Positions 7,908-44,983 of a stretch of 64,000 bases of DNA are shown piece after piece (positions within the stretch are counted from its first letter, which is position 1; each line of letters begins with the position of its first letter). Made by a program: the position numbers and the translations under genes. Source of the stretch: an uncultured Chloroflexia bacterium (GTDB lineage Bacteria > Chloroflexota > UBA5177); NCBI GenBank assembly GCA_963737125.1, contig CAVTRL010000001.1, positions 346,699 through 410,698 on the forward strand, given 5' to 3'. The notes beneath the pieces are model-generated. The model was not told the origin of the DNA and ran no database searches. It worked only from the letters and a program-made list of their open reading frames with translations.

Positions 7908-8132
7908 GTGGAGTCAGACCCGAGCAGTAAGGCGGCCGAGTATGAGAGTGCCAGGCTTCGGCGAGTAAGCTCCGAGACGCACGGGCGCATATGCCGTCAA
8001 TGCATGCAACCCATGCTTTCCAGGCGGCGCCTGCCATGGTATCTTCGGCCTCTGCGCCGGCTCGGATTCCCTTTGAAGTCCTACGAATGTCTCTTTTGCG
8101 GCGCTGTGACGATTCACCGAAAGGAGCGATAG
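7908..8132 (+). CDS. Small basic zinc-ribbon-like protein (74 aa)
   Basis: GAGG SD before GTG; two CxxC pairs (CRQC, CLFC) near the ends. Confidence 0.5.
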   Translation: MESDPSSKAAEYESARLRRVSSETHGRICRQCMQPMLSRRRLPWYLRPLRRLGFPLKSYECLFCGAVTIHRKER

Positions 8133-8350
8133 AACATCTTTACGGTTTGCGCGGTCGGCGGACTGAGACGGTGTGAGAGTCGCGACAACAATAACGTACT
8201 TGAAGTGTAGATAATTTGATGTAGAACCTTCTATATTTACGTGACATGAACGTCGAACACGAAAGACGTTCACCGTGCCCGGAAATTGTCCCAGTGGACT
8301 GTGGTCGGGTCGGGGAAGGTGCATACATGCAGGTGCGTCCAAGTGAGTAA

Positions 8351-20933: not shown

Positions 20934-20953
20934 GTGGGTGGTTCTCCTTGATT

Positions 20954-20989
20954 GGCCGGCGTCGACGCCGGCCGTCTATCGCATGCGAT
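20954..20989. repeat. Two adjacent perfect palindromes between anmK and murQ
   Basis: GGCCGGCGTCGACGCCGGCC (20954-20973) and ATCGCATGCGAT (20978-20989). Confidence 0.55.
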
Positions 20990-21000
20990 CGGTCGAAGCG

Positions 21001-22296
21001 CTACGAGTGCACGCGCAGGATACGGTGGACTTCGCTTCCGAGCGTATCACTGGAAGTCGGAGAAACGGCATGCCTCTGTCCCTGACCGAACACGCGCTTC
21101 ATGAGGCTTTGGTAATTCCTGCCGGGCACGATTTTACCGAGCGTCACGGCGTGTCGCGCACCCGTGCAACTCGGTACGTTGGTAGATCGGCCGTACAACG
21201 AGTCATAACCCATCAACGCGAACGTGATCGCTTCCTTTGCTTTGCCCGGCACGCCAAACTCGTCATGCATGTGAACGGTGAGTGTGGGAAGGCGCCGGCG
21301 GAGCTGATCGACCAGATAGGAGTTCCGTGCGCCGCCTCCAGCCAATACCAGCTCCCGGAGGTCGGTCGGTCCGAACGCCCGATATGCCCGGGCGATACTT
21401 TCGGCAGTAATGGCGGTTAGCGTTGCCATGGTGTCTTCGGGTGATAGACCGAGCGTTTCCGCCTGGCCGATGACTTGCGCCGCAAAAGCATCGCCAAAGA
21501 GCTCGCGGCCGGTTGCCTTGGGCGGCGGTGCGGCGAAGTATGGATGGGCCAGCACGCCGTCCAGCAGGGCTTCATTCACCTGGCCGCGTTTTGCCATGGC
21601 CCCGTCGAGGTCAAGCTGTTGGGAGCCCCGGGAAAAGTGACGAGCGCCGTAGTCGATCAGTACGTTACCCGGCCCGGTGTCGAACGCGTAAGGGCCGTCA
21701 GAATTGCCGGCCGGTGGAACGAATGTGACATTCCCGATTCCACCGATGTTCTGCAGTGCAAGGCTGGTGGGACGCCCGCCAAAAAACAGGGTATCGAAGT
21801 ACGAGACGAGGGGCGCTCCCAACCCACCCGCCGCCATGTCGGCCACACGAAAGTCGCCGGCCACGGTGATGCCGGCGCGTTCGGCGATGACAGCGGGTTC
21901 CGCGAACTGAAGGGTAGACGGCACGCGCCTATCCTCCATGAGGTGATAGATGGTCTGACCGTGCGATGCGATCAGGTCGAGGTCCTCCGCCTGCATCCCC
22001 TGGGACTTCAGCGCATCGAGCAGAGCATCGGCAAATACCCTTCCGAGCACGAAGTTCAGTTCCGTCAAGTCGTCCAGTCGGGCGGCTTGCTCGTCCAGTA
22101 ACATCAAGACCCGCTCGCGCACGGCCGTGGGCATTGGTTGCTCCGTGAAGCTGAGGAGCGACATCGTCACGACTTCAGCTTCACCCTCCGTGGCCTGACT
22201 GAATTCACATACCGCGACGTCGATCGCATCGACCGATGTGCCCGAAATCATCCCGGCGACGCGCATCGTGGTATCTGGAGGTGCAATGTGGTTCAC
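21001..22296 (-). CDS. anmK: Anhydro-N-acetylmuramic acid kinase
   Basis: GMISGTSVDAID, IASHGQTIYH, GDFRVADMAAGGLGAPLV, QNIGGIGNVT, AFDTGPGN, KATGRELF, AGGGARN, KEAITFA. GTG 22296 overlaps the GNAT stop. Confidence 0.93.
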   Translation of the reverse strand: MNHIAPPDTTMRVAGMISGTSVDAIDVAVCEFSQATEGEAEVVTMSLLSFTEQPMPTAVRERVLMLLDEQAARLDDLTELNFVLGRVFADALLDALKSQGMQAEDLDLIASHGQTIYHLMEDRRVPSTLQFAEPAVIAERAGITVAGDFRVADMAAGGLGAPLVSYFDTLFFGGRPTSLALQNIGGIGNVTFVPPAGNSDGPYAFDTGPGNVLIDYGARHFSRGSQQLDLDGAMAKRGQVNEALLDGVLAHPYFAAPPPKATGRELFGDAFAAQVIGQAETLGLSPEDTMATLTAITAESIARAYRAFGPTDLRELVLAGGGARNSYLVDQLRRRLPTLTVHMHDEFGVPGKAKEAITFALMGYDSLYGRSTNVPSCTGARHAVTLGKIVPGRNYQSLMKRVFGQGQRHAVSPTSSDTLGSEVHRILRVHS

Positions 22297-22823
22297 TCGT
22301 ACCTGCTTTCCGGTTTGGTTTGCGTCGATTCTGCATCTCGCACCGCAAGATCGCGTTTCAGGTATATCAGCTCCTGTACGTCGTCGGCGTGCCAGTCCGG
22401 TAGCGCTCCCACCCTGACGTAGCCGTGACGTTCGTAGAATCGTTGTGCGTCGGTATTCCAATCGGTGCACAGTAGAAATATCCCTTGCACACCGCGTGAG
22501 GCGAGCAGTCGTTCGGCCTCGCGCAGAAGGTGACTGCCGGTGCCGTGCCCGACGTCCTCCCTCCGGGTGCCGATGAGGCGTATATAGCCGTGGTTGCCGA
22601 ACGTCGTATCACTCATAATTACAAAACCGGCGAGGACGCTTTCGCCGGTGGCCGGGTGCTCGGCCACCAACCCGAATTCGCCGCGATCGAGATAGCGGCA
22701 AATGGCGGCACTCTGCTGATCGGGATCGCGTTCGTGCCAGAGCGGGTGCTCGTGCATCAACCGCGCGATGCCGGGTGCATCCTCGGGCGTTAAAGGGCGA
22801 ATTACAAGTTGGTGGATGGTCAT
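22293..22823 (-). CDS. GNAT family N-acetyltransferase
   Basis: IRPLTPEDAP start; YIRLIGT...VGHGTGSHLL acetyl-CoA motif; NTDAQRFYERHGY. Confidence 0.8.
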   Translation of the reverse strand: MTIHQLVIRPLTPEDAPGIARLMHEHPLWHERDPDQQSAAICRYLDRGEFGLVAEHPATGESVLAGFVIMSDTTFGNHGYIRLIGTRREDVGHGTGSHLLREAERLLASRGVQGIFLLCTDWNTDAQRFYERHGYVRVGALPDWHADDVQELIYLKRDLAVRDAESTQTKPESRYE

Positions 22824-22879
22824 GTCGTCGCCATCACCGGAAGTATGATCGAACTGGATGAAAGGGCGATGGGTAATAC

Positions 22880-23806
22880 CTACCTGATGGCCGCTTCCTG
22901 CATCCGCCGCGCCCGCGGATCGAGTGCATCGCGTAGCCCGTCTCCCACCAGGTTGAATCCCAGTACAGCCAGCATAATCGTGAATCCCGGGAAGATGGAG
23001 AGCCAGGGATCGAGTGTGACGAGCTGACTGCCGCTGCTCAGCATGGTCCCCAGATCGGGCTGGGGAGGCTGAAGTCCAAGACCGAGAAAACTGAGCGCGG
23101 TCTCGGTGAGCAGCGCCCATGAGAGCGTCAGCGTGACCTGCACCACGATCACCGACAGCACGCTGGGCAGCACGTGACGGAGCAGAATGGATCGAGTCGG
23201 CACGCCAAGCGCCAGCGCTGCCTGGACGAACTCGCGTTCACGCAGGGTGAGCACCGGTCCTCGCACGATGCGCACGAACATGGGCATGTACACGATTGCA
23301 ATGGCCAGGATGAGCTGGTAAACCCCCGCTCCCAGCGCGGCGATAATCGCCAGCGCTAGCAATACGGGTGGAAACGCAAAGAAGATGTCGATCACGCGCA
23401 TGATGAGGTTGTCCGGCAGGCTGCCGAAGTATCCGGCTATCAGGCCCAGAGCCGTTCCTACCACCATCGCGATGATCGAGGAGGGCAAAATGATTTCGAG
23501 CGAAATTCGAATTCCGACCAGTATTCGTGTGAACTGATCCCGGCCAAACTCGTCGGTTCCCATCAGATGGCCGGTGCTTGGCGGCGCCAATTGCACACTG
23601 GTTGCAATGTGCAGCGGATCGGGCAACGACGGAAGAAAGCTTGCTATTGCCGCGAGACAGTACAGCGCCAGCAGCACGACGCCGATAGCCGTGGCGGGAC
23701 CTGACCACAAGAAACTGAGGCGGACGAGTCGCGACCGCCGCGATTGCTCGTCTTCGACGTCTGAATCGGGGTTAACTCTGGGTGATTCGAGGGTCGGCAA
23801 GGCCAT
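22880..23806 (-). CDS. Peptide/nickel ABC transporter permease (DppC/OppC-like)
   Basis: HLMGTDEFGRDQ, EREFVQAALALG (EAA loop), SFLGLGLQPPQPDLG, GDGLRDALDPR. Confidence 0.9.
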   Translation of the reverse strand: MALPTLESPRVNPDSDVEDEQSRRSRLVRLSFLWSGPATAIGVVLLALYCLAAIASFLPSLPDPLHIATSVQLAPPSTGHLMGTDEFGRDQFTRILVGIRISLEIILPSSIIAMVVGTALGLIAGYFGSLPDNLIMRVIDIFFAFPPVLLALAIIAALGAGVYQLILAIAIVYMPMFVRIVRGPVLTLREREFVQAALALGVPTRSILLRHVLPSVLSVIVVQVTLTLSWALLTETALSFLGLGLQPPQPDLGTMLSSGSQLVTLDPWLSIFPGFTIMLAVLGFNLVGDGLRDALDPRARRMQEAAIR

Positions 23807-24725
23807 AGGCTACATCCGCGATCAGATTTGACAGAACAAAGGCCAGGGCAATGACCAGTACCGAGCCCTCCACGACTGGGTAATCCCGACCCAGAATCGA
23901 GGTAAGAAGCAACCGTCCGATGCCGGGTACATTGAAAATCTGCTCGATGATCACCGCACCGGTCAAGAGGTAGCCTGCCATGACGCCGATGGTGGTGATA
24001 ATCGGTATCACCGCGTTGCGCAACACATGCTTCATTACGACCAGGTTGTATGGAAGCCCCTTGGCGCGTGCGGTGCGCACGTAGTCCTCGGTAAGAACTT
24101 CCAGCACCGCGGAACGCGTCATCCGCATGATCGATCCGGCTACCGAGGCGCCAAGGGCGAGAGCGGGAAGGACGTTCTGCTGGAGATTGAGCCCGGGATT
24201 ATCCGTAAACGGCACGTACGACTGACCGTTGGGCAACCACGAGATCTTGGTCGAGAACAGGAGTATGAGTAGCGTGCCGAGCCAGAAATTCGGCATCGAC
24301 AGCCCGATCAAGCTGAAGACACGTGCGGCTATGTCGGACACGGAATTGGGGCGGAGAGCCGAAAGCGTCCCGAGCGGTAAACCGACCAGCAGCGCGACAA
24401 ACAGCGCCCAGAATGATAACTCGGCCGTGATCGGGATGCGGGAGAGAATTAATTGCAGCACCGGCGTGCCGTTCAGGAGGGACACCCCGAAGTTGCCGCG
24501 GACCACGAGTGAGATCCAGATGAAGTACTGCTTCCACACCGGCACGTCGAGCCCGAAGTAATGCTGCAGAATCGCGACCTGCTTGGCTGAAAGACCAACC
24601 GAGGTGCCGATGCGGTAGTCGATGGCCGAGCCGGGAATCAACCTGATCAAAACAAAGGTCAGCACGGAAATGCCGAGCAGTGAGAACAGGGCGAAGAGTA
24701 GTCGACGCGCGACGAAAGTCAGCAC
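23772..24725 (-). CDS. Peptide/nickel ABC transporter permease (DppB/OppB-like)
   Basis: GLDVPVWKQY, SMPNFWLG, EDYVRTARAKGL, EQIFNVPGIG, RDYPVV, DPRI. Confidence 0.9.
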   Translation of the reverse strand: MLTFVARRLLFALFSLLGISVLTFVLIRLIPGSAIDYRIGTSVGLSAKQVAILQHYFGLDVPVWKQYFIWISLVVRGNFGVSLLNGTPVLQLILSRIPITAELSFWALFVALLVGLPLGTLSALRPNSVSDIAARVFSLIGLSMPNFWLGTLLILLFSTKISWLPNGQSYVPFTDNPGLNLQQNVLPALALGASVAGSIMRMTRSAVLEVLTEDYVRTARAKGLPYNLVVMKHVLRNAVIPIITTIGVMAGYLLTGAVIIEQIFNVPGIGRLLLTSILGRDYPVVEGSVLVIALAFVLSNLIADVAYGLADPRITQS

Positions 24726-24743
24726 GAGAGTTAGAGCGTAGGG

Positions 24744-26384
24744 CTAACTGAGCCACACGTCTCGCAGGCCGACCAACGAGTGGTTCGCCCGGGGCACAAA
24801 CCCCTGAACTTTTGATTGCATGATGGAGTACAGGAAGCCGGAATACAGCCAGATGAACGGCGAGGCGTCTACGAGAATCTGCTGCGCCTTATCGTATGCA
24901 GCCTTTCTGACGGCGAACTTACTCGACGTGCGGCCCTTCAGCAAGAGCGTATCCAGTTGTGACGACTTCCAGTGGCCGGTAACAAAGTTGAGGTTACCTC
25001 CGCTGTAAAAGTAGCGATACAGGTAGTAATCGGGATCCGGACCACCGCCATTGTTGCCCGGCATCATTTGATAGTCCGCCTTCAGCCAATCCTGTACCCA
25101 GGCCGAGAATTGCATCAGTTGCACATCGGCCGAAATGCCGACATCCGACAACTGCGATTGCACGACCTGAGCGATGGCCGGCGCGTTATCCGGATCGGAT
25201 GTCTGCGTCAACAACGTGAATTTAAATCCTTGCCCCTGGCCGGCCTGCGCCAGAAGTTGTTTGGCTTTCTTGACGTCGCGTTTATAGCCGGCCAGCTTTG
25301 AGGTGGGATACGCATATCTGGTGAGACCGGCCGCAACCGGTCCCACCGGCACGCCTTCACCAAGGTTCGCGCCGGCAATGATCGCGTGCCGATCGATGGC
25401 GTAGCTGACTGCCTGCCGGGCTGCCTTCTTGATGAAAGGATCGCGGGCCGTCTGCAAGAAAAGCAGGTAGTACGACAGGTCCGGTACTCGCATCACTTTC
25501 AGACTGTGGGCCGCCGCTGCTTCCTTGCCCACGATGGCGTCGAGCGAGTACGTGAAGTCGGTGGAGTTCTGGCGCATTGACGCCAACAACGAGGTCGCAG
25601 TCGGCTGAATCGTTACTTTTACATGGTCGACATACGGCTTACCCGATTCGTAGAAGTGGGTGTTGCGGCTCAACGTCATATAACTGTCGGGAACCCACTT
25701 GGTCACCTTGAACGGGCCTGCTCCAATCGCGTTCTCGATCTTGCTCATGTCCGCGCCCGCGTTCAAAAGCCTGGCCGGCAGAATGGCGGCATTCATACTT
25801 GTCAGATAGGCAGTAAGCGCCGCATTCGGGGAGGAGAGCTGGAACACCACGGTATGCGGATTGGGCGTGGTGATCGTCGTAATGTTCGCGAAGAAGGAAC
25901 TCGCAATCGCGACCGTCTTCGGATTGAGAATGCGCTCGAAACTGGCCTTGACATCGGCGGACGTGAGCGCCCAACCGTTCGAGAATTTCAGATTCGGATG
26001 CAGCGTAAAGACGTATCTGGTACCGCCGTTCGACACTTTGAACGATTGCGCAAGGTCACCAACCGGCTTGAGGTGCGTGTCGAGCTTTAGCAGGGTCGCG
26101 TGTATCAGGAAAAAGAATCGAATAGAGGATTCCGACGGGCTTGTGTGTGGGTCGAGAGCCGGAATTTCGTCGGTGTACGCGATGCGTAACGTGCCGCCAC
26201 GCTTGGGCGCTTGGGCCGGAGCGGCGAGGGCATCAGACCAGGTGAGACTTTCCAGGAGACCGACCGCCGCGCTCATCGATACGCCGATTGCCATCATTCG
26301 TTGAAGAAAGTCGCTCCGGCTGATGCTCCCCTCGAGCAATTCTTCGGTAAGGGCTACCATTTCACGCGTGCCGCCAGTAGTCAT
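24744..26384 (-). CDS. ABC transporter substrate-binding protein, family 5
   Basis: KRGGTLRI, LDPH, LTSADVKASFERI, IGAGPFK. Start ATG 26384 with GGTGG SD; Tat-like leader SRSDFL. Confidence 0.9.
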   Translation of the reverse strand: MTTGGTREMVALTEELLEGSISRSDFLQRMMAIGVSMSAAVGLLESLTWSDALAAPAQAPKRGGTLRIAYTDEIPALDPHTSPSESSIRFFFLIHATLLKLDTHLKPVGDLAQSFKVSNGGTRYVFTLHPNLKFSNGWALTSADVKASFERILNPKTVAIASSFFANITTITTPNPHTVVFQLSSPNAALTAYLTSMNAAILPARLLNAGADMSKIENAIGAGPFKVTKWVPDSYMTLSRNTHFYESGKPYVDHVKVTIQPTATSLLASMRQNSTDFTYSLDAIVGKEAAAAHSLKVMRVPDLSYYLLFLQTARDPFIKKAARQAVSYAIDRHAIIAGANLGEGVPVGPVAAGLTRYAYPTSKLAGYKRDVKKAKQLLAQAGQGQGFKFTLLTQTSDPDNAPAIAQVVQSQLSDVGISADVQLMQFSAWVQDWLKADYQMMPGNNGGGPDPDYYLYRYFYSGGNLNFVTGHWKSSQLDTLLLKGRTSSKFAVRKAAYDKAQQILVDASPFIWLYSGFLYSIMQSKVQGFVPRANHSLVGLRDVWLS

Positions 26385-26571
26385 TGGAAACCACCTTTCG
26401 AACGGGACATGGAGTGAATATACTATGCAACATGCGTTGCGACTGTAACAATTGCTTTGCGGAAGAGTGACGGATACAGAAAGAACAGTGGTACCAGGCC
26501 AACGTGCCGGCACACCAGGGCGACGATTCGGAGTAATTCACGGCGCCCGCTCACCGTGCGGCGCCCAATCC

Positions 26572-27743
26572 TTATTCTGCGCCGGCCACTACCGTCAGAA
26601 CTTTGGCCAGCGGTCCCACAAACTGCTCATCGTTGTCCCAGTAGTTATGTGCGGGCAGTCCCCCTCCGGCCCCGTGCTCGGCGTTCTCGACCAGCGTATC
26701 GGAGAGTGAGACAGGATCGCTGACGCCGCTGTCCTGGTTGGTCGACTCGTACAGTAGCGATTTGCCGGTTGATGGAGGGAGTGGGTCGCCGCGCCGCCAC
26801 GAACGCGGTGGTTCCAGCGGGTCAGCCACCGGATCCGTTTCATCCCAGAAATTAGACCACGGGATCGAGCTGATGCACGTGGCATCCGTTCCCCAGTAGA
26901 ACAGATCGACGTATTTACGCAGTGGGCTCCCAGCAGTGATCAGGTGCTTGATCTTCGCCGCTGCAAACGGCGGCATTTCGCGTACAACGTCAAATGCGAG
27001 GACCGTTCCCTGGCTATGCGCGCTGACAACGATGGTGTCGACGTCGGGGCGGCATGCGATTCGAAGGAGTGCATCGTGGGCAAAGCTGCGGACTCGTTCA
27101 CGCAAATCGTTTCGGCAGACATAGGTGGTGACGTCCTGATCGAGCTGCCCGATGATGGAGAGCGGCCCGGACTTGTCCGGAGCCGCTACCGCCCGGGGAT
27201 TCTCGGCCGTCACTTTTTGCCGCACTTGCAGGCTTGGCGTCGGGGCTGAAGCGGCGCTCCCTCGGTGGTGCACGATAGCCCAGGCATCCGTCAATCCCAT
27301 GTGGACCAACGACGGCAGACTGGCATAGTGGCCCATCGACATGATCGCTTTGCTGAGCGTTTCGAGCGATGCTCCGGGATGTATCTGCTGCTCCTCCAGA
27401 CCGGCGTATACCAAGGCGACATGTGCTACCGGGTGAGTGTCATCCGTCAGGGGAACGTCTGAGATGTCGATCAACCGGTGATTGGCATCACCTTTCTGCC
27501 ACCGCCCCAATCGCTTGAGTCCCTCTTCCACCTTTCCACTGCCGGGAGGCCAATCGCTGTGCACGTAGACTGCCCCGGTCCCGCAGGCCGGCCAAACTCC
27601 GCGCGAGGATCTCCCGAGAGTAGTTTAGGTATCCGTTTGTCGAGAGAATCGTGCAACCCATCGGCATAGCCTTGACTCCCGTTCTCCGGTGCATGTTGAA
27701 AGCCGATGCCATGAATAGTAACCAGACACGTGATGCCGTCCAT
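26572..27743 (-). pseudogene. Alpha/beta-hydrolase-fold protein split by a homopolymer frameshift
   Basis: N-terminus MDGITCLVTIHGIGFQ (ORF 27471-27806) joins GAVYVHSDW (ORF 26572-27564) if the C4 run at 27573-27576 were C5. Motifs AHSQG (nucleophile elbow), LITAGSPL, WSNFWDETDPV, terminal AHNYW. Confidence 0.65.
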
Positions 27744-27962
27744 GATGCATTTCCTCTCCTTATATGGGGAGCTGGAGTCAACTCGACGATGATGACTACG
27801 ATACACCAGTTTGGGCGAGCAGTCGCCGCGTCACGGTCGAGTGTGGTGGCCGGCGAAGGTGCGTGGCCGTACCCACGACGTCGAAGTGGAAAGAGCTATG
27901 CGTGCCCCGGGAGCTGTCGACCGTTTCCTACTGCGGTACGTCCCGGAAGGTGCTGCGAACTG

Positions 27963-29234
27963 TTACCACCCGGCAAATGGCGCGTTTGGAGCCAGTGCCT
28001 CCTCAATGCGCAGTAGCTGGTTGTATTTGGCAAGCCGCTCTGATTGGGTGAGTGAACCGATCTTGATCTGACCGGCGGCGGTTGCCACTGCTAGATCGGC
28101 GATGAACGGGTCCTCTGTTTCACCGGAACGCGCCGAGATAACAGTGCGATAGCCGGCGTCGCGCGCTATGCGCACGACATCAAGCGTCTCGGTAAGCGTG
28201 CCGATCTGGTTCATCTTCACCAGCACGGCATTGGCCGCACCCAGCTCAATCCCACGCCGTACGCGGCCGGCATTCGTGGCGAAGAGATCGTCTCCGATGA
28301 TCTGGACGTTCTTGCCCAGACGCTCCGTAACCACCCCCCAGCCGTCCCACTCATTCTCCGCCAACGGGTCCTCAATGGAAACGATCGGGTATGCCTGAAT
28401 CCAATCGGACAGCATAGCAATCAACGATTCGGTGCTATGCGTCTGGCCTTCGGCTTCCAGACGGTAGGATCGGCTCGATTCGTCAAAGAAGTGCGTGGCG
28501 GCGACATCAATGGCGATGGCAACCTCCTGGCCTGGCGTGTGACCGGCTCGATCGATTGCCTGGACGATCAAGTCCAGAGCCTCGTGGCTATCGCGCAGGG
28601 GTGGCCCGAATCCGCCCTCGTCCGCTCGTAGCGTGGTGAGTCCCTGGGCGTTGAGCAACGTCCGTAACGCCCTCAGGACGGACGCTCCCATGGCCAGCGC
28701 CTGACTATACGTCTCCGCTCCTATCGGTACGATAAGAAAATCTTGCAGATCGAGGTTGTGGGAAGCGTGCATGCCTCCGCTAATTGCATTGATCATCGGC
28801 ATGGGTAGTACCGGTTGCCGAGGCCCTGCGAGATGGCGCCAGACCGGCAGGTGCTGCGATTTCGCGGCGGCGCGGGCAGTGGCCAGTGAGACGGCGAGCA
28901 GTGCATTGGCGCCGAGATGAACTTTATTGGGTGTCCCGTCTACCTCGACCAGTCGAGCATCGAGTGCGGGCTGGTCGCACACGTCCATGCCGTCAATTGC
29001 GGGTCCAAGCGAAGTTATTACATTTCGCACTGCGTTCAGCACGCTTGCACCGCCATACACTCCGGGCATGTTATCGCGCAGCTCGAGTGCCTCGTGCTGT
29101 CCAACCGACGCCCCCGACGGCACGCTGGCGCGCCCCTGCGTGCCATCCGCGGTAACAACGTCAGCTTCGACAGTCGGGCGACCTCGCGAGTCAAGTATCT
29201 GACGGGCCGTCACTGATGCGATACGCGTGTTCAC
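27963..29234 (-). CDS. eno: Enolase paralog with substituted active-site residues
   Basis: Full-length enolase motifs: ILDSRGRPTVE, PSGASVG, DEGGF, SIEDP, GDDLF, VKMNQIG, RSGETED, SERLAKYNQLLRIEE. Carries QDF for QEF and SARSGE for SHRSGE. Confidence 0.9.
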   Translation of the reverse strand: MNTRIASVTARQILDSRGRPTVEADVVTADGTQGRASVPSGASVGQHEALELRDNMPGVYGGASVLNAVRNVITSLGPAIDGMDVCDQPALDARLVEVDGTPNKVHLGANALLAVSLATARAAAKSQHLPVWRHLAGPRQPVLPMPMINAISGGMHASHNLDLQDFLIVPIGAETYSQALAMGASVLRALRTLLNAQGLTTLRADEGGFGPPLRDSHEALDLIVQAIDRAGHTPGQEVAIAIDVAATHFFDESSRSYRLEAEGQTHSTESLIAMLSDWIQAYPIVSIEDPLAENEWDGWGVVTERLGKNVQIIGDDLFATNAGRVRRGIELGAANAVLVKMNQIGTLTETLDVVRIARDAGYRTVISARSGETEDPFIADLAVATAAGQIKIGSLTQSERLAKYNQLLRIEEALAPNAPFAGW

Positions 29235-30301
29235 CCTCGGTTGTCCCTGATGGAGGCAATCGATACCCCGATTTCGTCAATTACCGGATTGATCGCCGTC
29301 ACGTTTCCCACCAGGATTTCGCGCGCCAGGTTCCGGGTGAAGCTCCGCTTCGATTCGTCCGTGATGTACTCGATCTTGGATTTACCGTCGATACGTGCCA
29401 GTAGAAGACATCCCAATTCGCGTACGGTGGCGGCCTCGACGTCGTACGGCGCGGGGAAGTCGATCTGGGCACGATATTCGCGCCAGAAGCGCTTCGCGGC
29501 TGGCAGATAGAGCTCTCGCCAGCGAGGCCGGCGAATGGACTTCAGGATGAGGTGATTGAGCAGAAACGCGGTATCGAATGCCGGATCACCCACGTGTGCC
29601 ACTTCAAAGTCGATGGCCAGGACGTGGTCGGCATAGATAAAGAGATTCTTGGGACTGTAGTCTCCATGGACGAGCGCGACGTGAACCTGCAACATCCGAT
29701 CCACCTCGGCTACCACGATCTCTGCAAGGTCGGGATTGACCTGCGCCGCGGTACGGTGATAGGGGTCGACACGGCCCTGTATGAAGTTGTTCACCGCGGC
29801 AAATCGCCGGGCAACATCCGCGTGCCGCGCGGACAGGCCGTGCATGGCGGCGAGCCAGCCACCGACGCGAGCGGCTGCTTCATCGTCCACGTGCCCATCC
29901 AGTAAAGCCGCTTTCCAGAACACGCCGCCCGGCGGCGCGCAGGTCATCGCGAAGATAAAGTTGTCGGCGTCGGAAAACAATACCCGAGGTACGGATCCTT
30001 CAGGCAGATAGGTACTCAAGAGGCTCATACAGTCACGTTCTATAAAGATGCGATCCCGATCAAACGGCCAGTCGTCCGCCACGCGAAGCTTGGGCAGCGA
30101 CTGCTTGAGAACAAAGGCGTCGCCGCCGGCCTGGACCTTTAACACAACGTTAGAGATACCCCAGCCGAGCGATTCGACCTTGATCTCCTTGTCTGATGAA
30201 ATAACGCCGCGTTCTAGCAGGTAAGCTCGGACGTTCTCCGGCGTGATCTCAATTGGCTTCGGCGTGGCCGGCCTCCAATACTGGTCGATGCCGATTGACA
30301 T
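29231..30301 (-). CDS. APH-family small-molecule kinase, 5-methylthioribose kinase (MtnK)-like
   Basis: GWGISNVV, FVLKQSLPKLRVADDWP, LVHGDYSPKN, AIDFEVAHVGDPAFD. Stop overlaps the enolase GTG (GTGA). Confidence 0.85.
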   Translation of the reverse strand: MSIGIDQYWRPATPKPIEITPENVRAYLLERGVISSDKEIKVESLGWGISNVVLKVQAGGDAFVLKQSLPKLRVADDWPFDRDRIFIERDCMSLLSTYLPEGSVPRVLFSDADNFIFAMTCAPPGGVFWKAALLDGHVDDEAAARVGGWLAAMHGLSARHADVARRFAAVNNFIQGRVDPYHRTAAQVNPDLAEIVVAEVDRMLQVHVALVHGDYSPKNLFIYADHVLAIDFEVAHVGDPAFDTAFLLNHLILKSIRRPRWRELYLPAAKRFWREYRAQIDFPAPYDVEAATVRELGCLLLARIDGKSKIEYITDESKRSFTRNLAREILVGNVTAINPVIDEIGVSIASIRDNRG

Positions 30302-30311
30302 GTTCACGGTA

Positions 30312-30340
30312 CTGACGCACAACGCAAATTAGCATATGAT
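30312..30340 (+). promoter_or_regulatory. Candidate promoter of gntR and the catabolic operon
   Basis: CTGACG-N17-TATGAT in the 94-bp divergent intergenic region. Confidence 0.45.
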
Positions 30341-30395
30341 ATTTCATGTTCACAACGAAGCAGCGGAATAGCGATCCGCCGGAGGGGGACATGCT

Positions 30396-31172
30396 GTGAC
30401 CGATGAATACGTTACGTCCGTCATCGTGCCCCTCAGCTCACTGGCACGGAAAACCTACAAGCTGACCATATTCGAGGCACTGCACGAGTTGATTCAGAAC
30501 CTGCAGCTTCCCCCCGGTGAGCGGCTGGTCGAGGCTGACCTTGCAACCCGTTTTGGGGTCTCGAAAACGCCGGTCCGTGAAGCGTTGCTACTGCTTGAAA
30601 AAGAGCGACTGGTCACCACGGTACCACACGTTGGCGCCACCGTGACATGGCTGTCTGTGCGGGATTACGAACAAAAACTTTTTATTCTCGATGCACTGGA
30701 GCAGCCCACACTTCAACTGATTCACGAACGCATCACCAGAGAGGAACTGGAGTTTTGCCGGCAAATCGTGGATAACATGAGCCAGGCTTTTGCCCAGAAA
30801 GACGAGGCAGCCTATACGAATCATGTGATCCGCATGCATTCTCAGCTGTTTGCGGCGGCGCGGTATCCACAGCTCACCGAGCTGGTGAACGGCATGCAGC
30901 AGTCGCTACGTCGCTACACCAAAGCATTTGTGCGCCACTATCCCCATAACTGGTTACGGGAGCTCGAGACGGCACAGAAACGGTTTGGATATCTGTACGA
31001 AGGAAACGTGCCGGCAGCGGCGGCCGCCGTGCAGCAAGGGCATGTGGCTCTTCTGGAATTTGCACGGGCTCGCGCGGCAGCCGGGGACCGGCACGTCATC
31101 CGGTATCTCGACCCGTCAAGCCTCGACGGCCACGGAGAAGAAGGGTCGGAGCTCGGAATGGCTGCCGGCTGA
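30396..31172 (+). CDS. GntR family regulator (wHTH + FCD)
   Basis: LPPGERLVEADLATRFGVSKTPVREALLLLEKE; FCD-like helical C-terminus (MHSQLFAAA). Confidence 0.9.
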   Translation: MTDEYVTSVIVPLSSLARKTYKLTIFEALHELIQNLQLPPGERLVEADLATRFGVSKTPVREALLLLEKERLVTTVPHVGATVTWLSVRDYEQKLFILDALEQPTLQLIHERITREELEFCRQIVDNMSQAFAQKDEAAYTNHVIRMHSQLFAAARYPQLTELVNGMQQSLRRYTKAFVRHYPHNWLRELETAQKRFGYLYEGNVPAAAAAVQQGHVALLEFARARAAAGDRHVIRYLDPSSLDGHGEEGSELGMAAG

Positions 31173-31201: not shown

Positions 31202-32413
31202 ATGCAAATCGAGAAGCTTGAAACGATATGGTTCGATGCTCAGCCCAATACCATGTGGTTGCGAGTCCACACTGACGAAGGATTGATTGGACTCGGCGAG
31301 ACCTACTACGCCCCCCGGGCGGTGGCCGCAATCATCCACGACGTCCTTTCCAAACTTCTTATCGGTACGTCGCCGCTCGATATCGAGAAACACTGGATCA
31401 ACATGTTCTCGACTGTGAATTTCTTCGGCTTCGCAGGCGCGGAGAGTCGAGCCATCTCGGCCGTGGACATTGCGCTCTGGGATATCCTCGGGCAGTACAC
31501 CGGGCAGCCGATTTACACTCTTCTCGGCGGGCGCGTGCGCGACTCGATCCCGATCTACAACACGTGCGTCAATTACGGCCAGTTTCAGGACTTTGACGCC
31601 TGGAATCGGGATGCCGGTGACCTGGCGGAAGACTTGCTCCGTCAAGGAGTCAAAGGAATGAAGGTGTGGCCCTGGGATCGGTTTGGGGTATCGCTCGGCG
31701 GTCCCATCGGACAGCGGGCCGGGGTCAGCGCGGTTGGTCCGGTCGGTCATTTTTTGCCTTCCGAGATATTGAAGCAAGGGCTCAAGCCGATCCAGCAAAT
31801 TCGCGAACGGGTGGGCGATCGTATGGAGATTGCAATTGAAGGGCATGCCCGGTGGGACCTGCCGATAGCGATGCGGATTGCCGAGGCGCTTGCCCCGTAC
31901 GACATCATGTGGCTGGAAGAGATTATCCCGCCCGACAATGTCGAGAGCTACGCCATACTGGCACGCGAGTCGCCGGTAAAGATCTGTGCCAGCGAGCGGC
32001 TGTTTACACGCTTCGCCTTTCGACAGCTCATAGAAGCAGGCGGCACACACATCGTGATGCCGGACATTGCCTGGACCGGGGGATTGACCGAGTCTCGTAA
32101 AATCGCGGATCTCGCCGACACTCACTACTTGCCGATGACAACGCACGACACCATCGGCCCCGTGGCCCTCTGGGCGGCCGCCCACCTGGCTCTCCATGCG
32201 CCCAATGCCATGATCGTCGAGACTGTCCGGGGCTACTATCTCGGCTGGTACAACGAAGTCATGACGTCTTCCATCCCCGTGGCCGACGGTTTACTGAGCC
32301 TTGACGAAAAGCCAGGATTGGGTACCGCCCTGCGCGAAGAGGTGCTTCGGCGGCCCGATGTACACCTGGAAACCACAACGATCGACAGCTTGAGGAACAT
32401 GTCGCATGCCTGA
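31202..32413 (+). CDS. Mandelate racemase / muconate lactonizing enzyme family (acid-sugar dehydratase-like)
   Basis: HTDEGLIGLGE, AISAVDIALWDILGQ, PIYTLLGG, MKVWPWD; metal ligands IEGH, WLEE, ASER; HDTIGP. Confidence 0.9.
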   Translation: MQIEKLETIWFDAQPNTMWLRVHTDEGLIGLGETYYAPRAVAAIIHDVLSKLLIGTSPLDIEKHWINMFSTVNFFGFAGAESRAISAVDIALWDILGQYTGQPIYTLLGGRVRDSIPIYNTCVNYGQFQDFDAWNRDAGDLAEDLLRQGVKGMKVWPWDRFGVSLGGPIGQRAGVSAVGPVGHFLPSEILKQGLKPIQQIRERVGDRMEIAIEGHARWDLPIAMRIAEALAPYDIMWLEEIIPPDNVESYAILARESPVKICASERLFTRFAFRQLIEAGGTHIVMPDIAWTGGLTESRKIADLADTHYLPMTTHDTIGPVALWAAAHLALHAPNAMIVETVRGYYLGWYNEVMTSSIPVADGLLSLDEKPGLGTALREEVLRRPDVHLETTTIDSLRNMSHA

Positions 32414-33239
32414 CACACCTACTCTGCCTGCCGTCGCTTCTCGCTTCCTGCTCACCGACCGGGTGACCGTCGTAACCGGGTGGGGATCCGGTATAGGGCG
32501 CGAGATTGCTCTGGCATTTGCCGAAGCCGGCGCCCATGTAGCGGGACTCGAAGTGGTTGAAGAGCACGGTCTCGAGACTGCGCAAGGTGTTGCCGATCGA
32601 GGAAGGAGAGCGCTTCCGCTGCACTGCGATGTGTCCGATCCGGAACGGGTAGCAGAGGCCTTTGCCGCTATTGATGCCGAGTTTGGCCGGATCGACGTAC
32701 TGGTGAATTGCGCTTTCAAGGGCAGCCACGCGCATCCTGCCGATCTCACCTTCGATGAGTGGAAGGTCGTTCTCGACGTGGGAGTGACCGCGTATTTCCT
32801 GTGCTCCCAACAGGCCGGGCGGCGAATGATCGCGGATCGACGTACCGGCGCAATCATCAACCTCGGCTCCATCGCCGGCGCTTCCGCGCTCGGTCGCGGC
32901 AACTTCGCGTATAGCGTCGGGAAGGGGGCCATCAACCAGCTCACGCGAGAGTTGGCAATCGAGTGGGCGCCGTACGGCATCCGGGTCAATGCCATACTCC
33001 CCTGTCAGGTCCGCACGCCGGCCTTGCAGCGGCTCATCGATGATCCGCAATTCGATTCCGATGCGTTGGTCAACACATTCCTTCATGGCATCCCGCTGGG
33101 TCGGCTGGCGGAGTCCTCTGACATTGCGAACGCGGCTCTTTTTCTGGCTTCAGACGCGGCCTCCATGATTACCGGCGTGTTGCTTCCGGTTGATGGCGGC
33201 AATCTGGCCATGAACGCGGGAGGCACGGTTCGCTGGTGA
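32406..33239 (+). CDS. Short-chain dehydrogenase/reductase
   Basis: VTGWGSGIG, IDVLVNCA, INLGS, YSVGK, IRVNAILP, DGG. Confidence 0.92.
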   Translation: MPDTPTLPAVASRFLLTDRVTVVTGWGSGIGREIALAFAEAGAHVAGLEVVEEHGLETAQGVADRGRRALPLHCDVSDPERVAEAFAAIDAEFGRIDVLVNCAFKGSHAHPADLTFDEWKVVLDVGVTAYFLCSQQAGRRMIADRRTGAIINLGSIAGASALGRGNFAYSVGKGAINQLTRELAIEWAPYGIRVNAILPCQVRTPALQRLIDDPQFDSDALVNTFLHGIPLGRLAESSDIANAALFLASDAASMITGVLLPVDGGNLAMNAGGTVRW

Positions 33240-34228
33240 GTGGTGAGCGTCCGGCTATCCTCCTCTACACGGATGCCGTGGAGTTCCCGCTCCCGCCGGA
33301 GCTCCTGGCGAGAGCTCAAGCGTCCGGCCTGGAGCTCCGGATGGTTGACGGGCACGACCCAGCGGAAATGCAGACTGTGGCCTCCCAATCTTCAGGCATG
33401 TTTCTGTACCGAGCTCGGGTCGATGTGGCGCTCCTCGATGCCATGCCGCGCTGTCGGGTGCTGGCGCGCGTGGGCACGGGATACGATCTCATCGACGTGC
33501 TGGAAGCGCGCCGCCGCGGCGTCATGGTGACCAATGTTCCCGATTTCTGCACGGAAGAGCTTTCCGACACCGTTATGCTGTTCGTACTGGCGTTTGCGCG
33601 CCGTCTTCCGGATCTATTGGATGGAGCACGGCGTCGGCATTGGATGACCGTAGCCGAGCTGCCGAAACCGCGCCGGCTTACCGGTCGCACTCTCGGGATC
33701 ATCGGTTTTGGGAAGAGCGGTCAGCGCACCGCGGAAAAGGCTCATGCGTTCGGCCTGGATGTGCGCGTGTGGACCCGTACGTCACGGCCCCAGGCGTTGG
33801 CACGGACGCACGCTCGGGAGGTGTCATTTGAAGACGCGCTGGGCTGCGATTATGTATCGCTGCACGTTCCGTTGACTCCGGAAACACACGGCTTGATCAA
33901 TGAACGATCGTTGCAGCACATGAAGCCGGGCGCGGTCTTGATCAATATTGCTCGAGGTGCGGTTGTCGACACGCCGGCACTCGTCGCGGCGCTTCGGCAA
34001 GGCGTGATTGCCGGAGCCGGGCTCGACGTGGTCGATCCTGCGCCCCTGCCGGAGGATCACCCACTCTGGGAGATGCCGAACGTTCTGATCACGTCGCACA
34101 CGGCCTGCATTTCTCAGGAGGCGTTGATGCAGTCTCAGACTATTGCGCTCGAAGACGCAATCGCGGTGCTATCGGGCCGAGCGCCGGCTCATCCCGTGCC
34201 CGAAATGGCACAGTCGGAGGCGTCATGA
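33236..34228 (+). CDS. D-isomer-specific 2-hydroxyacid dehydrogenase (CtBP-like)
   Basis: VTNVPDFC, GIIGFGKSG, SLHVPLTPET, INIARGAVVD, GLDV, ITSHTA. Confidence 0.9.
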   Translation: MSGERPAILLYTDAVEFPLPPELLARAQASGLELRMVDGHDPAEMQTVASQSSGMFLYRARVDVALLDAMPRCRVLARVGTGYDLIDVLEARRRGVMVTNVPDFCTEELSDTVMLFVLAFARRLPDLLDGARRRHWMTVAELPKPRRLTGRTLGIIGFGKSGQRTAEKAHAFGLDVRVWTRTSRPQALARTHAREVSFEDALGCDYVSLHVPLTPETHGLINERSLQHMKPGAVLINIARGAVVDTPALVAALRQGVIAGAGLDVVDPAPLPEDHPLWEMPNVLITSHTACISQEALMQSQTIALEDAIAVLSGRAPAHPVPEMAQSEAS

Positions 34229-34327: not shown

Positions 34328-35149
34328 GTGCGTGAAGCAGCGATGCGACCGTCGATCAATCAGTCCTGTTTTCCGGGAATCGATACCCGGGAATTCGCGA
34401 GATGTGCCTCGGTCGCCGGCTTCGGGAGCGTTGAGCTGCGCACCCTGGGACGGGATGAACCGATCACCCTGCTGCAGACCGCGGTGCTGGAGAACGGCTT
34501 GCGGGTTGAAGCAATCAATGGGCTCATGGACTGGGCATTGCCCGACGATCCGGATCCGCTCCGCGCGCTCGAACAGGCCCTCACCATTGCTACGTCGGTG
34601 GGTGCGCCGGTGATCGTCTGCGCCGGCCCGATTCGTCCGGGGATACTGCCACCCACCGATGTCATCATGGCGTCCGCGACCGAACGCCTGGCCGCCATGG
34701 CCGAAGTTGCGCGTTCTACTGGGGTCAAACTGGCCGTCGAGCAGATCGGAAAATCGAGCACTCGTCCTGGAGCTGCCAGTGGGATACGGCGGCTGGACGA
34801 CGCCCTGGCGGTGGCAACACGCGCCGGTTCCGATGTCCTGGTGACGCTCGACAGTCATAATCTGGCCACGGCGGATGAGGGGTTTGATATGCTGTCGCGC
34901 GTGCCGGTCTCGGCAGTCGGCATCGCGCAAATCGCTGGAATCTCGGCCACGGACAGCGGACGTGCATTGCCGGGCGAAGGTTCAACCGACAACGCCTCCT
35001 TCGTCCGGGCCCTGACAGCTATGGGGTACACCGGAGCGGTCTCAATCGAGATGTTTCCGGCCCGACCCTGGGACAATCCTGGTGAATTTGCACTTGAGGC
35101 GTACACCCGCGTTCGAAATTTGATCGACACTGCACTGGGTCGCGGCTGA
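34328..35149 (+). CDS. Sugar phosphate isomerase/epimerase family TIM barrel (AP_endonuc_2), divergent
   Basis: AGFGSVEL, GVKLAVEQ, LDSHN, IAQIAG, LPGEG, GYTGAVSIEMF. Confidence 0.75.
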   Translation: MREAAMRPSINQSCFPGIDTREFARCASVAGFGSVELRTLGRDEPITLLQTAVLENGLRVEAINGLMDWALPDDPDPLRALEQALTIATSVGAPVIVCAGPIRPGILPPTDVIMASATERLAAMAEVARSTGVKLAVEQIGKSSTRPGAASGIRRLDDALAVATRAGSDVLVTLDSHNLATADEGFDMLSRVPVSAVGIAQIAGISATDSGRALPGEGSTDNASFVRALTAMGYTGAVSIEMFPARPWDNPGEFALEAYTRVRNLIDTALGRG

Positions 35150-35171: not shown

Positions 35172-36149
35172 ATGGGAGAGGTGATCATGCAGCATGAATT
35201 TATTCTGGCGGCAGGGACGTGGCGAGACGCCGATGTCGAACGGGAGCACCTCGAAGGCCGGCCGGTCACGGTCCGGGTGGCTTCTCTGGAGACAGTGTCG
35301 GATATCGCCCGCGAAACTGAGGGCGCCGACGGTGTCATAGTCACCTGGAACCCTATGCCGCGCGAGTTCATCAATGCCCTCAGCAGTAGCGTTCGGATTC
35401 TCACGCGGGCCGGAATCGGACTCGACGCGATCGATCTCGAAGCCGCAAAGGAGCGCGGGATTGCCGTCTTTCACGTGCCCGACTACTGTACAGAAGAGGT
35501 GGCGACGCACGCCGTCAGCATGATTCTCGCGCTTAATCGGCGTCTGGTCCAGGCGAATCGTTTGGCGCGAGAAGATTGGCTGGGATGGAAAGCCCTTGGA
35601 GAGGTTGTGCCGCTGTCGCAGCTCACCGTCGGCGTCGTGGGGACCGGTCGGATCGGCAGAGCAGTGGTGAGCAAGCTTGTACCGTTGTGTGGCCGGATTC
35701 TTACGTACGATCCCAATGTGGCGGAGGCGCCGGACGGTGCGTCGGCAGCATCTTCACTGGACGATCTCCTGCGTTCCAGCGACGCCGTCACGCTCCACAT
35801 ACCATTGCTGGGCGAGACGCGAGGTATTATTGGCGCGCGCGAGCTCGCGCTGCTGAGGCCAGGTGCGGTGGTCGTCAATGTCTCGCGGGGCGGACTGGTG
35901 GATACGCAAGCGCTCGTCGCCGCCCTCGAGAGCGGCCAGCTTTCTGGAGCAGGTCTGGACGTCCTTGAGCACGAGCCGCCCGAACCCGACGATCCGATAC
36001 TGCGAGCGCCGAATGTGATTCTCACGCCGCACTTTGCCTGGTATTCGGTGGCCTCGGAGCGACGGGCGCGGACGATTTCGGTGGACGGGATGATTGACTA
36101 CCTCGAAGGCCGGCAGCCCTCGGCCGGACGCCTCGCGATCATCCCCTGA
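35172..36149 (+). CDS. D-isomer-specific 2-hydroxyacid dehydrogenase (CtBP-like)
   Basis: RAGIGLDAID, HVPDYCTEEVA, GVVGTGRIG, VNVSRGGLVD, GLDVLEHEP, LTPHFAWYS. Confidence 0.9.
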   Translation: MGEVIMQHEFILAAGTWRDADVEREHLEGRPVTVRVASLETVSDIARETEGADGVIVTWNPMPREFINALSSSVRILTRAGIGLDAIDLEAAKERGIAVFHVPDYCTEEVATHAVSMILALNRRLVQANRLAREDWLGWKALGEVVPLSQLTVGVVGTGRIGRAVVSKLVPLCGRILTYDPNVAEAPDGASAASSLDDLLRSSDAVTLHIPLLGETRGIIGARELALLRPGAVVVNVSRGGLVDTQALVAALESGQLSGAGLDVLEHEPPEPDDPILRAPNVILTPHFAWYSVASERRARTISVDGMIDYLEGRQPSAGRLAIIP

Positions 36150-37369: not shown

Positions 37370-37386
37370 CGCAAGGGAGCTCGCGG

Positions 37387-40868: not shown

Positions 40869-40873
40869 TCGAG

Positions 40874-44976: not shown

Positions 44977-44983
44977 GATTTCC

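Follow-up and report, generated by a model that had tools for sequence, protein, structure and literature searches.

On the minus strand of a 64,000-nucleotide stretch of DNA from an uncultured Chloroflexia bacterium, here called the window, a small-molecule kinase with the fold of methylthioribose kinase (MtnK) is encoded directly upstream of an enolase paralog. Judged from their sequences, this pair and its relatives represent a new enolase subfamily with a private kinase and a putative function of its own: the enolase has lost Glu168 and His373 of canonical enolase (yeast numbering), and the kinase falls outside both the MtnK sequence model and the MtnK genomic context. We propose that kinase and specialised enolase together convert a glycerate-type 2,3-dihydroxy acid to an enol phosphate through an intermediate other than ordinary 2-phospho-D-glycerate, a reading to which we give an even chance of being correct. 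The pair would probably end the breakdown of sugar acids by a phosphorylate-then-dehydrate step.

The kinase-enolase pair of the window

The enolase gene (27963-29234, minus strand) begins with a GTG start codon and encodes a protein of 423 amino acids. This protein scores 569.7 bits against TIGR01060, past the curated cut-off of 300, contains both enolase Pfam domains (PF03952, 168.7 bits; PF00113, 348.2 bits) and is 46-54% identical to canonical enolases. A sequence search of the Protein Data Bank (PDB) found no solved structure closer to it than the canonical enolases, the best being 4mks and 4rop, and the window enolase was aligned with these two residue by residue. They have QEF and SHRSGETED where the window translation contains LDLQDFLIV and ISARSGETED. 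The residues that define the C3-hydroxyl site of canonical enolase and form the elimination half of its mechanism, Glu168 and His373, are replaced by Asp165 (codon GAT, 28740-28742, minus strand) and Ala368 (codon GCG, 28131-28133, minus strand). The catalytic residues other than these are all conserved, namely, in yeast numbering, S39, D246, E295, D320, K345, E211, H159, R374, S375 and K396. Three further replacements are encoded on the same strand: Ala204 for Gly209 (GCG, 28623-28625), two residues ahead of the general acid Glu211 in yeast numbering; Ser152 for Asn155 (AGC, 28779-28781), in the NGG-H-A loop; and Ile392 for Thr397 (ATC, 28059-28061), which adjoins Lys391, the equivalent of K396. 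With D165, A204, S152, A368 and I392 the window enolase carries all five markers of the subfamily described below.

The kinase gene (29231-30301, minus strand) encodes 356 amino acids from an ATG at 30301; the longest open reading frame (ORF) reaches a TTG at 30322. Its product matches APH (PF01636) and EcKL in Pfam and no other family. The best NCBIfam match is methylthioribose kinase (TIGR01767), with 67.3 bits against a cut-off of 275 and over the N-terminal lobe only, and a sequence search of the PDB returned MtnK structures only (E about 1e-9 to 1e-7). An AlphaFold model of the kinase (pLDDT 92.6) was compared with known structures by Foldseek, and the best matches were again methylthioribose kinases (2pyw, 2pun and 2olc; TM 0.75-0.80, 16-19% identity). 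The catalytic loop HGDYSPKN (residues 212-219; 29645-29668, minus strand), in which G213, D214, P217, K218 and N219 are invariant in 38 homologues, and the DFE metal-binding motif (residues 231-233; 29603-29611, minus strand), likewise conserved in homologues, agree with the HxDxxxxN loop and the DxE/DFG-type metal motif of the APH fold.

At the junction of the two genes, which reads CGA GGG TGA with the enolase GTG within it, the ORFs share four bases (GTGA, 29231-29234, minus strand), and GAGGG lies just 5' of the overlap. Read from the sequence, such an overlap together with GAGGG is the usual sign of translational coupling. An earlier reading of the same DNA, the original prediction, had claimed that E168 is Asp and H373 is Ala, that the catalytic base and acid, the Mg ligands, H159, R374/S375 and K396 are retained, and that the gene overlaps the stop codon of an MtnK-like kinase. 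Translation and alignment confirmed both codons and the retained residues, the overlap is present as described, and the likeness to MtnK holds for the fold, with a sequence score far under the MtnK cut-off. The replacement of Gly209 was absent from that reading. Among the minor changes that it did list, NGG to SGG and KTG to KIG proved to be subfamily-wide; STG to SVG, GNP to GRP and SRS to TQS are local to the lineage and amount to noise.

A kinase-linked enolase subfamily

The association of the two genes extends far beyond the window. A scan of one genome per GTDB species with an alignment of the kinase yielded 80 loci, at six of which the contig ends just past the kinase. A same-strand enolase is present in 70 of the 74 informative loci (95%), in the order kinase-then-enolase in 69, and the median gap is 97 bp. 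The loci are spread over more than ten phyla, haloarchaea included, and Acidobacteriota, Verrucomicrobiota, Planctomycetota, Chloroflexota, Armatimonadota, Actinomycetota, Alphaproteobacteria, Bacillota and Rhodothermales are among the groups represented. Viewed from the enolase side, in a sample made up of the window and seven further loci, the kinase lies immediately upstream in 8/8, in one of them as a remnant. No third gene was found to be universal among kinase-enolase loci. Apparent fusions of kinase and enolase also occur, in proteins of 745 (P0123) and 770 (P0138) amino acids.

An alignment was made of 62 full-length or fused kinase-linked enolases and 90 canonical ones. Position 168 is Asp in 62/62 kinase-linked and Glu in 90/90 canonical sequences, and position 373 is Ala in 60/62 and His in 90/90, respectively. 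Ala replaces Gly at position 209 in 61/62 (Gly in 87/90 canonical), Ser or Gly replaces Asn at position 155 in 61/62 (Asn in 86/90 canonical), and position 397, which is Thr, Ala or Ser in canonical enolases, is Val or Ile in 60/62. The catalytic core listed above for the window enolase is present in all 62 kinase-linked sequences. In a collection of 5.8 billion proteins, the 120 closest include 119 in which position 373 is Ala or Gly, and among full-length representatives of enolase homologues at 50% identity the combination E/H is found in 89 and D/A in 21. As far as these alignments can tell, the D168 and A373 pattern exceeds chance.

We then considered whether the kinase-linked enolases are a coherent group apart from these markers. 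In a BLOSUM62 neighbour-joining tree, all 62 fell within an 86-leaf clade that contains zero canonical enolases. Against such a grouping, in neighbour-joining bootstraps on Kimura distances the kinase-linked and canonical sets came apart in no more than 39 of 100 replicates, a figure that fell to 13 of 100 once the five marker columns were omitted. Monophyly by distance tree was therefore set aside as not robust under bootstrap, and cross-validation with hidden Markov models (HMMs) was used instead, with the five marker columns removed and whole sequence groups held out. All 62 kinase-linked enolases scored better with the model built from the remaining kinase-linked groups (by +43 bits on average and by at least +14), and 87 of the 90 held-out canonical enolases preferred the canonical HMM. 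Because this procedure sorts both groups in the absence of the marker columns, the kinase-linked D168/A373 enolases are, at the level of sequence, a coherent subfamily, and a single origin is likely. Nearest-neighbour identity was rejected as a discriminator: the nearest canonical representative is on average 53.5% and the nearest D/A representative 54.6% identical, and with values so similar identity alone fails to separate the D/A enolases from the canonical ones.

The five discriminating positions all lie on the Glu211 side of the pocket, which in yeast enolase deals with C3 and its hydroxyl. By residue conservation, the machinery for binding carboxylate and phosphate and for removing the C2 proton is intact in the subfamily. 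This distribution would also suit a different change, in which the substrate is bound in the same manner and the second half-reaction has been altered, so that a leaving group other than hydroxide departs from a 3-substituted 2-phospholactate to give phosphoenolpyruvate (PEP), for example sulfite from 2-phospho-3-sulfolactate, an amine or phosphate, or so that the enzyme does no more than exchange the C2 proton, as a racemase or epimerase of a 2-phospho acid: the consistent changes are all on the leaving-group side, and the proton-abstracting and enolate-stabilising machinery is untouched. In the E168Q and E211Q mutants of yeast enolase C2 proton exchange persists and elimination fails, so that the two halves of the reaction are separable, and the self-contained nature of the module in most genomes would fit a product that is already a central metabolite. 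Nevertheless, we regard an altered half-reaction as quite improbable. The general acid Glu211 is present in 62/62, which argues that hydroxide still leaves; genes for a sulfite exporter or oxidase, an aminotransferase or a phosphatase are not recurrently linked in the loci surveyed; and a literature search on phosphosulfolactate with enolase or kinase found nothing relevant.

The kinase-linked enolase can coexist with a canonical one. Azospirillum brasilense Sp7 carries the kinase-linked SARSGE enolase on plasmid p1 and a canonical SHRSGETED/QEF enolase, adjoining pflB, pta and ack, on p3. As the canonical copy coexists with it, the kinase-linked copy in this strain is an extra enolase, and in Sphingobium the annotation names the kinase-linked copy eno_2. 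The kinase family is found on 34 plasmid or chromid records, some of them from Rhizobium, Rhodococcus opacus PD630, Burkholderia pseudomallei, Azospirillum brasilense, Cupriavidus, Sphingobium, Methylobacterium nodulans and three haloarchaeal genera. Each of these records that was opened has a D168/A373 enolase next to the kinase or, in Rhizobium CIAT894, about 4 kb from it. Three further elements of the original prediction are upheld by these comparisons: the SARSGE-type enolase is tied to such kinases from the kinase side and the enolase side alike, it is a paralog and not the sole copy (in one complete genome, that of A. brasilense Sp7), and its pocket is remodelled, in that the C3/leaving-group side is rebuilt in a distinct and widespread kinase-linked set.

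The survey also revealed variants of the arrangement. In L001 (2082-2573), whose enolase is the nearest to that of the window (76% identity), the upstream kinase is reduced to its final ~75 residues, in a 163-amino-acid ORF; the kinase has decayed and the enolase has been retained, and an FAH-family gene is adjacent. In P0123, P0138 and a third protein of 595 amino acids, P0153, a single chain joins an MtnK-fold kinase to a D168 enolase whose position 373 is Ala or Gly; these proteins may be genuine fusions or the product of frameshift errors. In many Acidobacteriota loci (L013, L026, L029, L031, L032 and L034 among them) 500-750 bp separate kinase and enolase, and the gap holds a small ORF of ~136-140 amino acids (cluster c17). 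Four loci (L019, L053, L063 and L070) have a kinase homologue with no enolase within 8 kb, and its 3' neighbours there are a carboxyltransferase, a thioredoxin-reductase-like flavoprotein or an ABC exporter; enolase may not be the only partner of the kinase family. A metagenome-assembled genome of Bacillota (L017, 3422-9749) has two kinase copies that are 66% identical to each other, one of them followed by a D168/A373 enolase that retains Gly209 and Asn155. The histidine-phosphatase-family gene 3' of the other copy was considered as a possible phosphoglycerate mutase; its best matches are CobC- and PspA-like phosphatases, all below the cut-off, and it was set aside as uninformative. Between the window and locus L095 the enolases are 61% and the kinases 38% identical, the kinase evolving much faster than the enolase.

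Gene neighbourhoods and the proposed reaction

Enolase chemistry needs a carboxylate, a C2 phosphate ester, a C2 proton and a C3 leaving group. On the mechanism that we favour, the two genes would form one translationally coupled catabolic module. The MtnK-fold kinase would transfer phosphate to the 2-hydroxyl of a small 2,3-dihydroxy-carboxylate, namely a C3 or C4 acid of glycerate type that remains from the oxidative, non-phosphorylative degradation of a sugar or sugar acid. The dedicated enolase would bind the resulting 2-phospho acid as enolase binds 2-phosphoglycerate, by means of two Mg2+ and the phosphate clamp, with Lys340 (yeast K345) as the base, and Glu206 (yeast E211) would serve to eliminate the hydroxyl on C3. 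This would yield an enol phosphate, PEP from a C3 acid or a PEP homologue from a C4 acid, which would then join central metabolism. Gene coupling, the subfamily markers, the intact catalytic core, paralogy in one genome and the sugar-acid surroundings are observed; we infer the order of the reactions, the position phosphorylated and the identities of substrate and product.

Because the pair is retained together, the same five substitutions surround C3 and a normal enolase is also present, we favour a substrate that housekeeping enzymes cannot accept, and the intermediate would then not be plain 2-phospho-D-glycerate. Candidate intermediates are 2-phospho-L-glycerate, which could arise from L-configured hexonates, and a 2-phospho-tetronate or -4-deoxytetronate. 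In the case of L-glycerate the C2 proton would face the rebuilt Glu211 side; in the case of the C4 acids (threonate, erythronate and their 4-deoxy forms) the extra carbon would use the room created by H373A and E168D. A literature match on 2-phospho-L-glycerate, CpgD of Caulobacter, was found to be unrelated to the pair.

Where metabolic neighbours are present, they are genes of oxidative sugar and sugar-acid catabolism. On a B. pseudomallei plasmid the order is SDR, UxuA, GntR, UxuA, SDR, SMP-30 lactonase, FAH, kinase, eno, sugar ABC transporter and RraA, and the FAH protein scores 426 bits against 2,4-didehydro-3-deoxy-L-rhamnonate hydrolase. In Roseibium LacI is followed by kinase, eno, FAH, SDR and a sugar ABC transporter, and locus L092 has SDR, lactonase, amidohydrolase, IlvD/Edd, RraA, kinase and eno. 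Haloarchaeal plasmids carry the kinase-eno pair amid MR/MLE dehydratases, SDRs, an HpcH-type aldolase, cupins and an IlvC paralog. Actinomycetota-type loci run TetR, kinase, eno, 2-hydroxyacid dehydrogenase, flavin monooxygenase, FAH, and Rhodococcus has FAH, dehydrogenase, eno, kinase, FAH. In Verrucomicrobiota the pair follows SDR, RraA, a BNR protein, an SGNH hydrolase, an HpcH aldolase and a metallo-beta-lactamase-fold protein and is followed by an aldo-keto reductase. Rhizobium CIAT894 has LysR, ppc, dehydrogenase and kinase, with eno 4 kb away; ppc encodes PEP carboxylase, and its presence in this operon points to PEP as the product. The dehydrogenase/FAH-hydrolase route for pentoses and 6-deoxyhexoses gives pyruvate and a 2-hydroxy acid (PMC6336799). 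The pathways around the pair split 2-keto-3-deoxy acids to pyruvate and a small fragment, by this route or by aldolases, and from a hexonate the fragment would by analogy be glycerate.

The same operons bear on the possibility that the pair protects its host. The enolase would then be insensitive to an enolase inhibitor, such as a natural phosphonate or tartronate-semialdehyde phosphate arising as a by-product, and the APH-fold kinase would inactivate or make that inhibitor. The kinase does share the fold of antibiotic phosphotransferases, a target duplicate beside a modifying enzyme is a known layout of resistance genes, and the altered enolase residues contact the C3 oxygen, which such inhibitors exploit. 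We give this explanation very little credence, since the closest kinase folds are methylthioribose kinases and not antibiotic kinases, and since the pair lies within regulated sugar-acid operons (GntR, LacI, LysR, TetR) and, in the loci read, never beside biosynthetic clusters.

A more serious competitor is the ordinary glycerate branch, in which the kinase would be a fourth type of D-glycerate 2-kinase and the enolase a catabolic isozyme that converts 2-phospho-D-glycerate to PEP, with E168D and H373A tuning kinetics or regulation and not specificity. The neighbourhoods are sites where glycerate, hydroxypyruvate or tartronate semialdehyde arise: 2,4-diketo-3-deoxy-aldonate-type FAH hydrolases, HpcH and RraA aldolases and hydroxypyruvate-isomerase-like TIM barrels are nearby, and the nearby D-2-hydroxyacid dehydrogenases are closest to glyoxylate/hydroxypyruvate reductases. 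A canonical glycerate kinase domain was seen in none of the neighbourhoods read, and the ppc gene of the Rhizobium operon fits this scheme as well. So do the TIGR01060 score, far over the cut-off, and the intact catalytic residues of the first step, and the yeast H373N mutant retains part of its activity. On the other hand, a redundant isozyme should often disappear from the module or drift at positions 168 and 373, and instead the kinase has an enolase beside it in 95% of informative loci; haloarchaea and Verrucomicrobiota alike have the five substitutions fixed; Azospirillum and similar hosts have a canonical enolase in any case; and the yeast E168Q exchange lowers activity about 10^5-fold, chiefly at the elimination step. 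On balance we consider the glycerate branch rather unlikely.

Several observations nonetheless weigh against an intermediate other than 2-phospho-D-glycerate. The high TIGR01060 score and the identity to canonical enolases make normal activity on 2-phosphoglycerate (2-PG) plausible. As far as gene content can indicate, the neighbourhoods suit the C3 acid glycerate at least as well as the C4-C5 aldonate suggested in the original prediction, and they predict glycerate without telling which enantiomer. The dehydrogenases attached to the pair belong to the D-isomer-specific 2-hydroxyacid family, which suits acids of D configuration. Most loci, those of Acidobacteriota especially, have no metabolic neighbours, which means that the substrate must be a common metabolite; in M. 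nodulans and most Acidobacteriota the pair stands alone. Both the D-specific dehydrogenases and the loci that lack an upstream pathway would fit plain D-glycerate. A full-text literature search found no study of the kinase-enolase pair.

These dehydrogenases were also considered as an obligatory third member of the module. In a neighbour survey of 82 loci, a D-2-hydroxyacid dehydrogenase was present in only 8 and belonged to at least two orthologous groups, although it adjoins the pair directly in several loci of Chloroflexota and Actinomycetota type and on plasmids. It is accordingly a facultative partner.

In the window, the kinase gene is separated by a divergent intergenic region (30302-30395) from a GntR/FCD regulator (30396-31172, plus strand). 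The region contains one weak sigma-70-like match on the plus strand, and the number of such matches is no higher than in shuffled sequences, so that it is no evidence by itself. The regulator heads an operon on the plus strand that consists of an MR/MLE dehydratase (31202-32413), an SDR (32406-33239), a 2-hydroxyacid dehydrogenase (33236-34228), a xylose-isomerase-like TIM barrel (34328-35149), a second 2-hydroxyacid dehydrogenase (35172-36149) and a sugar ABC transporter with binding protein, ATPase and two permeases, which together with the next two genes, a second TIM-barrel isomerase/epimerase (40874-41731) and an SDR (41728-42516), spans 36284-42516. Two genes on the minus strand follow, for a thiamine diphosphate (TPP)-dependent E1 beta (42527-43516) and an E1 alpha with an N-terminal lipoyl domain (43513-45057), and this E1 pair is a possible member of the acid-sugar island. 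Orthologues of the first SDR (55% identity), the first TIM barrel (44%), the second dehydrogenase (59%), E1 beta (67%) and E1 alpha (57%) stand beside the kinase-enolase pair in locus L095, for which reason the island is probably, on this comparison of two loci, one functional unit in this lineage.

The divergence from a GntR-led acid-sugar operon, as originally described, is evident from this layout. The sugar-acid context is likewise supported, by acid-sugar genes beside the module here and in many other loci. The suggestion that the product feeds the TPP-dependent E1 has thin support and was set aside: the E1 pair recurs beside the module in one other locus, L095, and in 0/82 of the loci surveyed, which were the 80 from GTDB genomes together with L003 and L005. 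The E1 alpha protein has its lipoyl domain (PF00364) at residues 30-101 and would belong to an acetoin-type or 2-oxoacid dehydrogenase; the layout is unusual, and E2 and E3 genes are not adjacent.

On the other side of the pair, two ORFs on the minus strand, 27471-27806 (with an HG motif, VTIHGIGFQH) and 26572-27564 (with SAHSQG), overlap in different frames within 26572-27806, between the enolase and the next operon. They resemble one alpha/beta-hydrolase-like gene split by a frameshift, and neither has a Pfam or NCBIfam match. Beyond them lies a peptidoglycan-recycling cluster (18824-26513, minus strand) with the anhydro-MurNAc kinase AnmK, the MurNAc-6-P etherase MurQ, a PBP4B-like serine hydrolase, a GNAT acetyltransferase and Opp/Dpp-type transport genes; these last encode a binding protein and two permeases, and the row lacks an ATPase gene. 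A link to this AnmK/MurQ cluster, with the kinase as an AmgK-like MurNAc kinase, was rejected, since a 156-bp gap and the broken hydrolase gene intervene and since peptidoglycan-recycling genes are not recurrent at other kinase loci.

Elsewhere in the window, a second sugar-derivative island (52684-63019), similar to clusters of the fructosamine or glucosaminate type, contains an MR/MLE enzyme, an SDR, a GntR/UTRA regulator, a PfkB kinase, a double-SIS protein, an Opp-type transporter and an Amidohydro_2 protein. At 2273-3838 (minus strand) one protein unites a MauE/DoxX membrane domain with two thioredoxin-like (AhpC/redoxin) domains. Not far from it, two tandem Wzz/GNVR-ParA-type tyrosine-kinase-like proteins at 5442-10048 (plus strand) adjoin sugar aminotransferase and acetyltransferase genes in an exopolysaccharide locus. 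An Rfam scan of the whole window gave no match.

To our knowledge, the literature regards the enolase branch as isofunctional, and automatic annotation calls each of its members phosphopyruvate hydratase. Database names for members of the pair are limited to that term, 5-methylthioribose kinase or phosphotransferase. If the subfamily has its own substrate, a textbook enzyme family would gain a new reaction together with a new kinase specificity, and the missing last step of non-phosphorylative sugar-acid catabolism would be supplied. A non-canonical substrate would imply a route shared by haloarchaea and by bacteria from soil and water in more than ten phyla, encoded by genes now labelled glycolytic enolase and aminoglycoside phosphotransferase. 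Where a metabolic reconstruction takes the gene for the glycolytic enolase, as may happen with uncultured Acidobacteriota, Verrucomicrobiota, Planctomycetota and Chloroflexota, it may err. More tentatively, and with slightly more doubt than belief, we suggest that the D168/A373 enolases are the first "enolase proper" with a substrate other than 2-phospho-D-glycerate, and that with their private kinase they form an unrecognised ATP-neutral route that closes oxidative sugar-acid pathways. The pair is carried by cultured and genetically tractable organisms, among them Azospirillum brasilense, Rhodococcus opacus PD630, Rhizobium, Methylobacterium nodulans and haloarchaea.

Comparison with known systems

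Canonical enolase (EC 4.2.1.11) has the same two-domain architecture and length as the kinase-linked enolase, and the Mg ligands, the phosphate clamp H159/R374/S375, K345, E211 and K396 are common to both. The two differ in E168, H373, G209, N155 and T397, which are D, A, A, S/G and V/I in the kinase-linked set. Unlike its canonical counterpart, the kinase-linked enolase is paired with or fused to a kinase and, in A. brasilense Sp7, is an additional copy. MtnK (TIGR01767; 2olc, 2pyw) is the closest relative of the kinase in both sequence and fold, with the N-lobe motif KQ-LP-(x)R-(x)WP and the HGD catalytic loop in common. However, the identity over the fold is only 16-19%, the score is 67 bits against a cut-off of 275, and no methionine-salvage genes (MtnA and the like) were found in the window or in the loci whose genes were listed. 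Furthermore, the product of MtnK is a sugar 1-phosphate, whereas the enolase partner here requires a 2-phospho-carboxylate.

The closest parallel in logic is the combination of glycerate 2-kinase and enolase at the ends of the non-phosphorylative Entner-Doudoroff, glycerate and serine-cycle routes, in which a 2-hydroxyl is phosphorylated, the product is dehydrated and the phosphate is recovered as ATP. The upstream steps, cleavage of a sugar acid to pyruvate and a C3 piece, would also be of the same type. Three classes of glycerate kinase are known, class I GarK/GlxK, class II MOFRL and class III of plant type (PMC2063504), and GarK and GlxK of Escherichia coli yield 2-PG (PMC4378991). With Pfam matches to APH and EcKL only, the window kinase belongs to none of the three. 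Those routes moreover rely on the housekeeping enolase, whereas the enolase here is dedicated and altered.

Route III of the oxidative breakdown of pentoses and 6-deoxyhexoses uses a dehydratase, a 4-dehydrogenase and an FAH-type hydrolase to form pyruvate and glycolate or L-lactate (PMC6336799). In Burkholderia, Roseibium and L095 and on haloarchaeal plasmids, the same genes, for lactonase, dehydratase, SDR and FAH, surround the pair. Route III ends in glycolate or lactate, with neither kinase nor enolase; a hexonate version would end in glycerate, at which point the pair would act.

Tetronate catabolism, reportedly described by Zhang et al. in 2016 and said to employ the DUF1537 kinase OtnK, the isomerase OtnI and the decarboxylase OtnC, is likewise a kinase-dependent route for a C4 acid sugar, and its TIM-barrel isomerase family is also represented in the window, where proteins match the 2-oxo-tetronate and hydroxypyruvate isomerase models weakly (27-42 bits). 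The Otn system differs in the fold of its kinase, in the position phosphorylated and in having no enolase, and no DUF1537 gene was seen in any locus read.

Finally, the class V lanthipeptide enzymes LxmK/LxmY (9dk1-3) also couple a kinase to an eliminating enzyme, and LxmK is among the nearer folds to the window kinase (TM about 0.63). There the substrate is a peptide and the phosphate is the leaving group. Since the phosphate site of the enolase is intact, the phosphate would, unlike in LxmK/LxmY, be expected to stay on the product.

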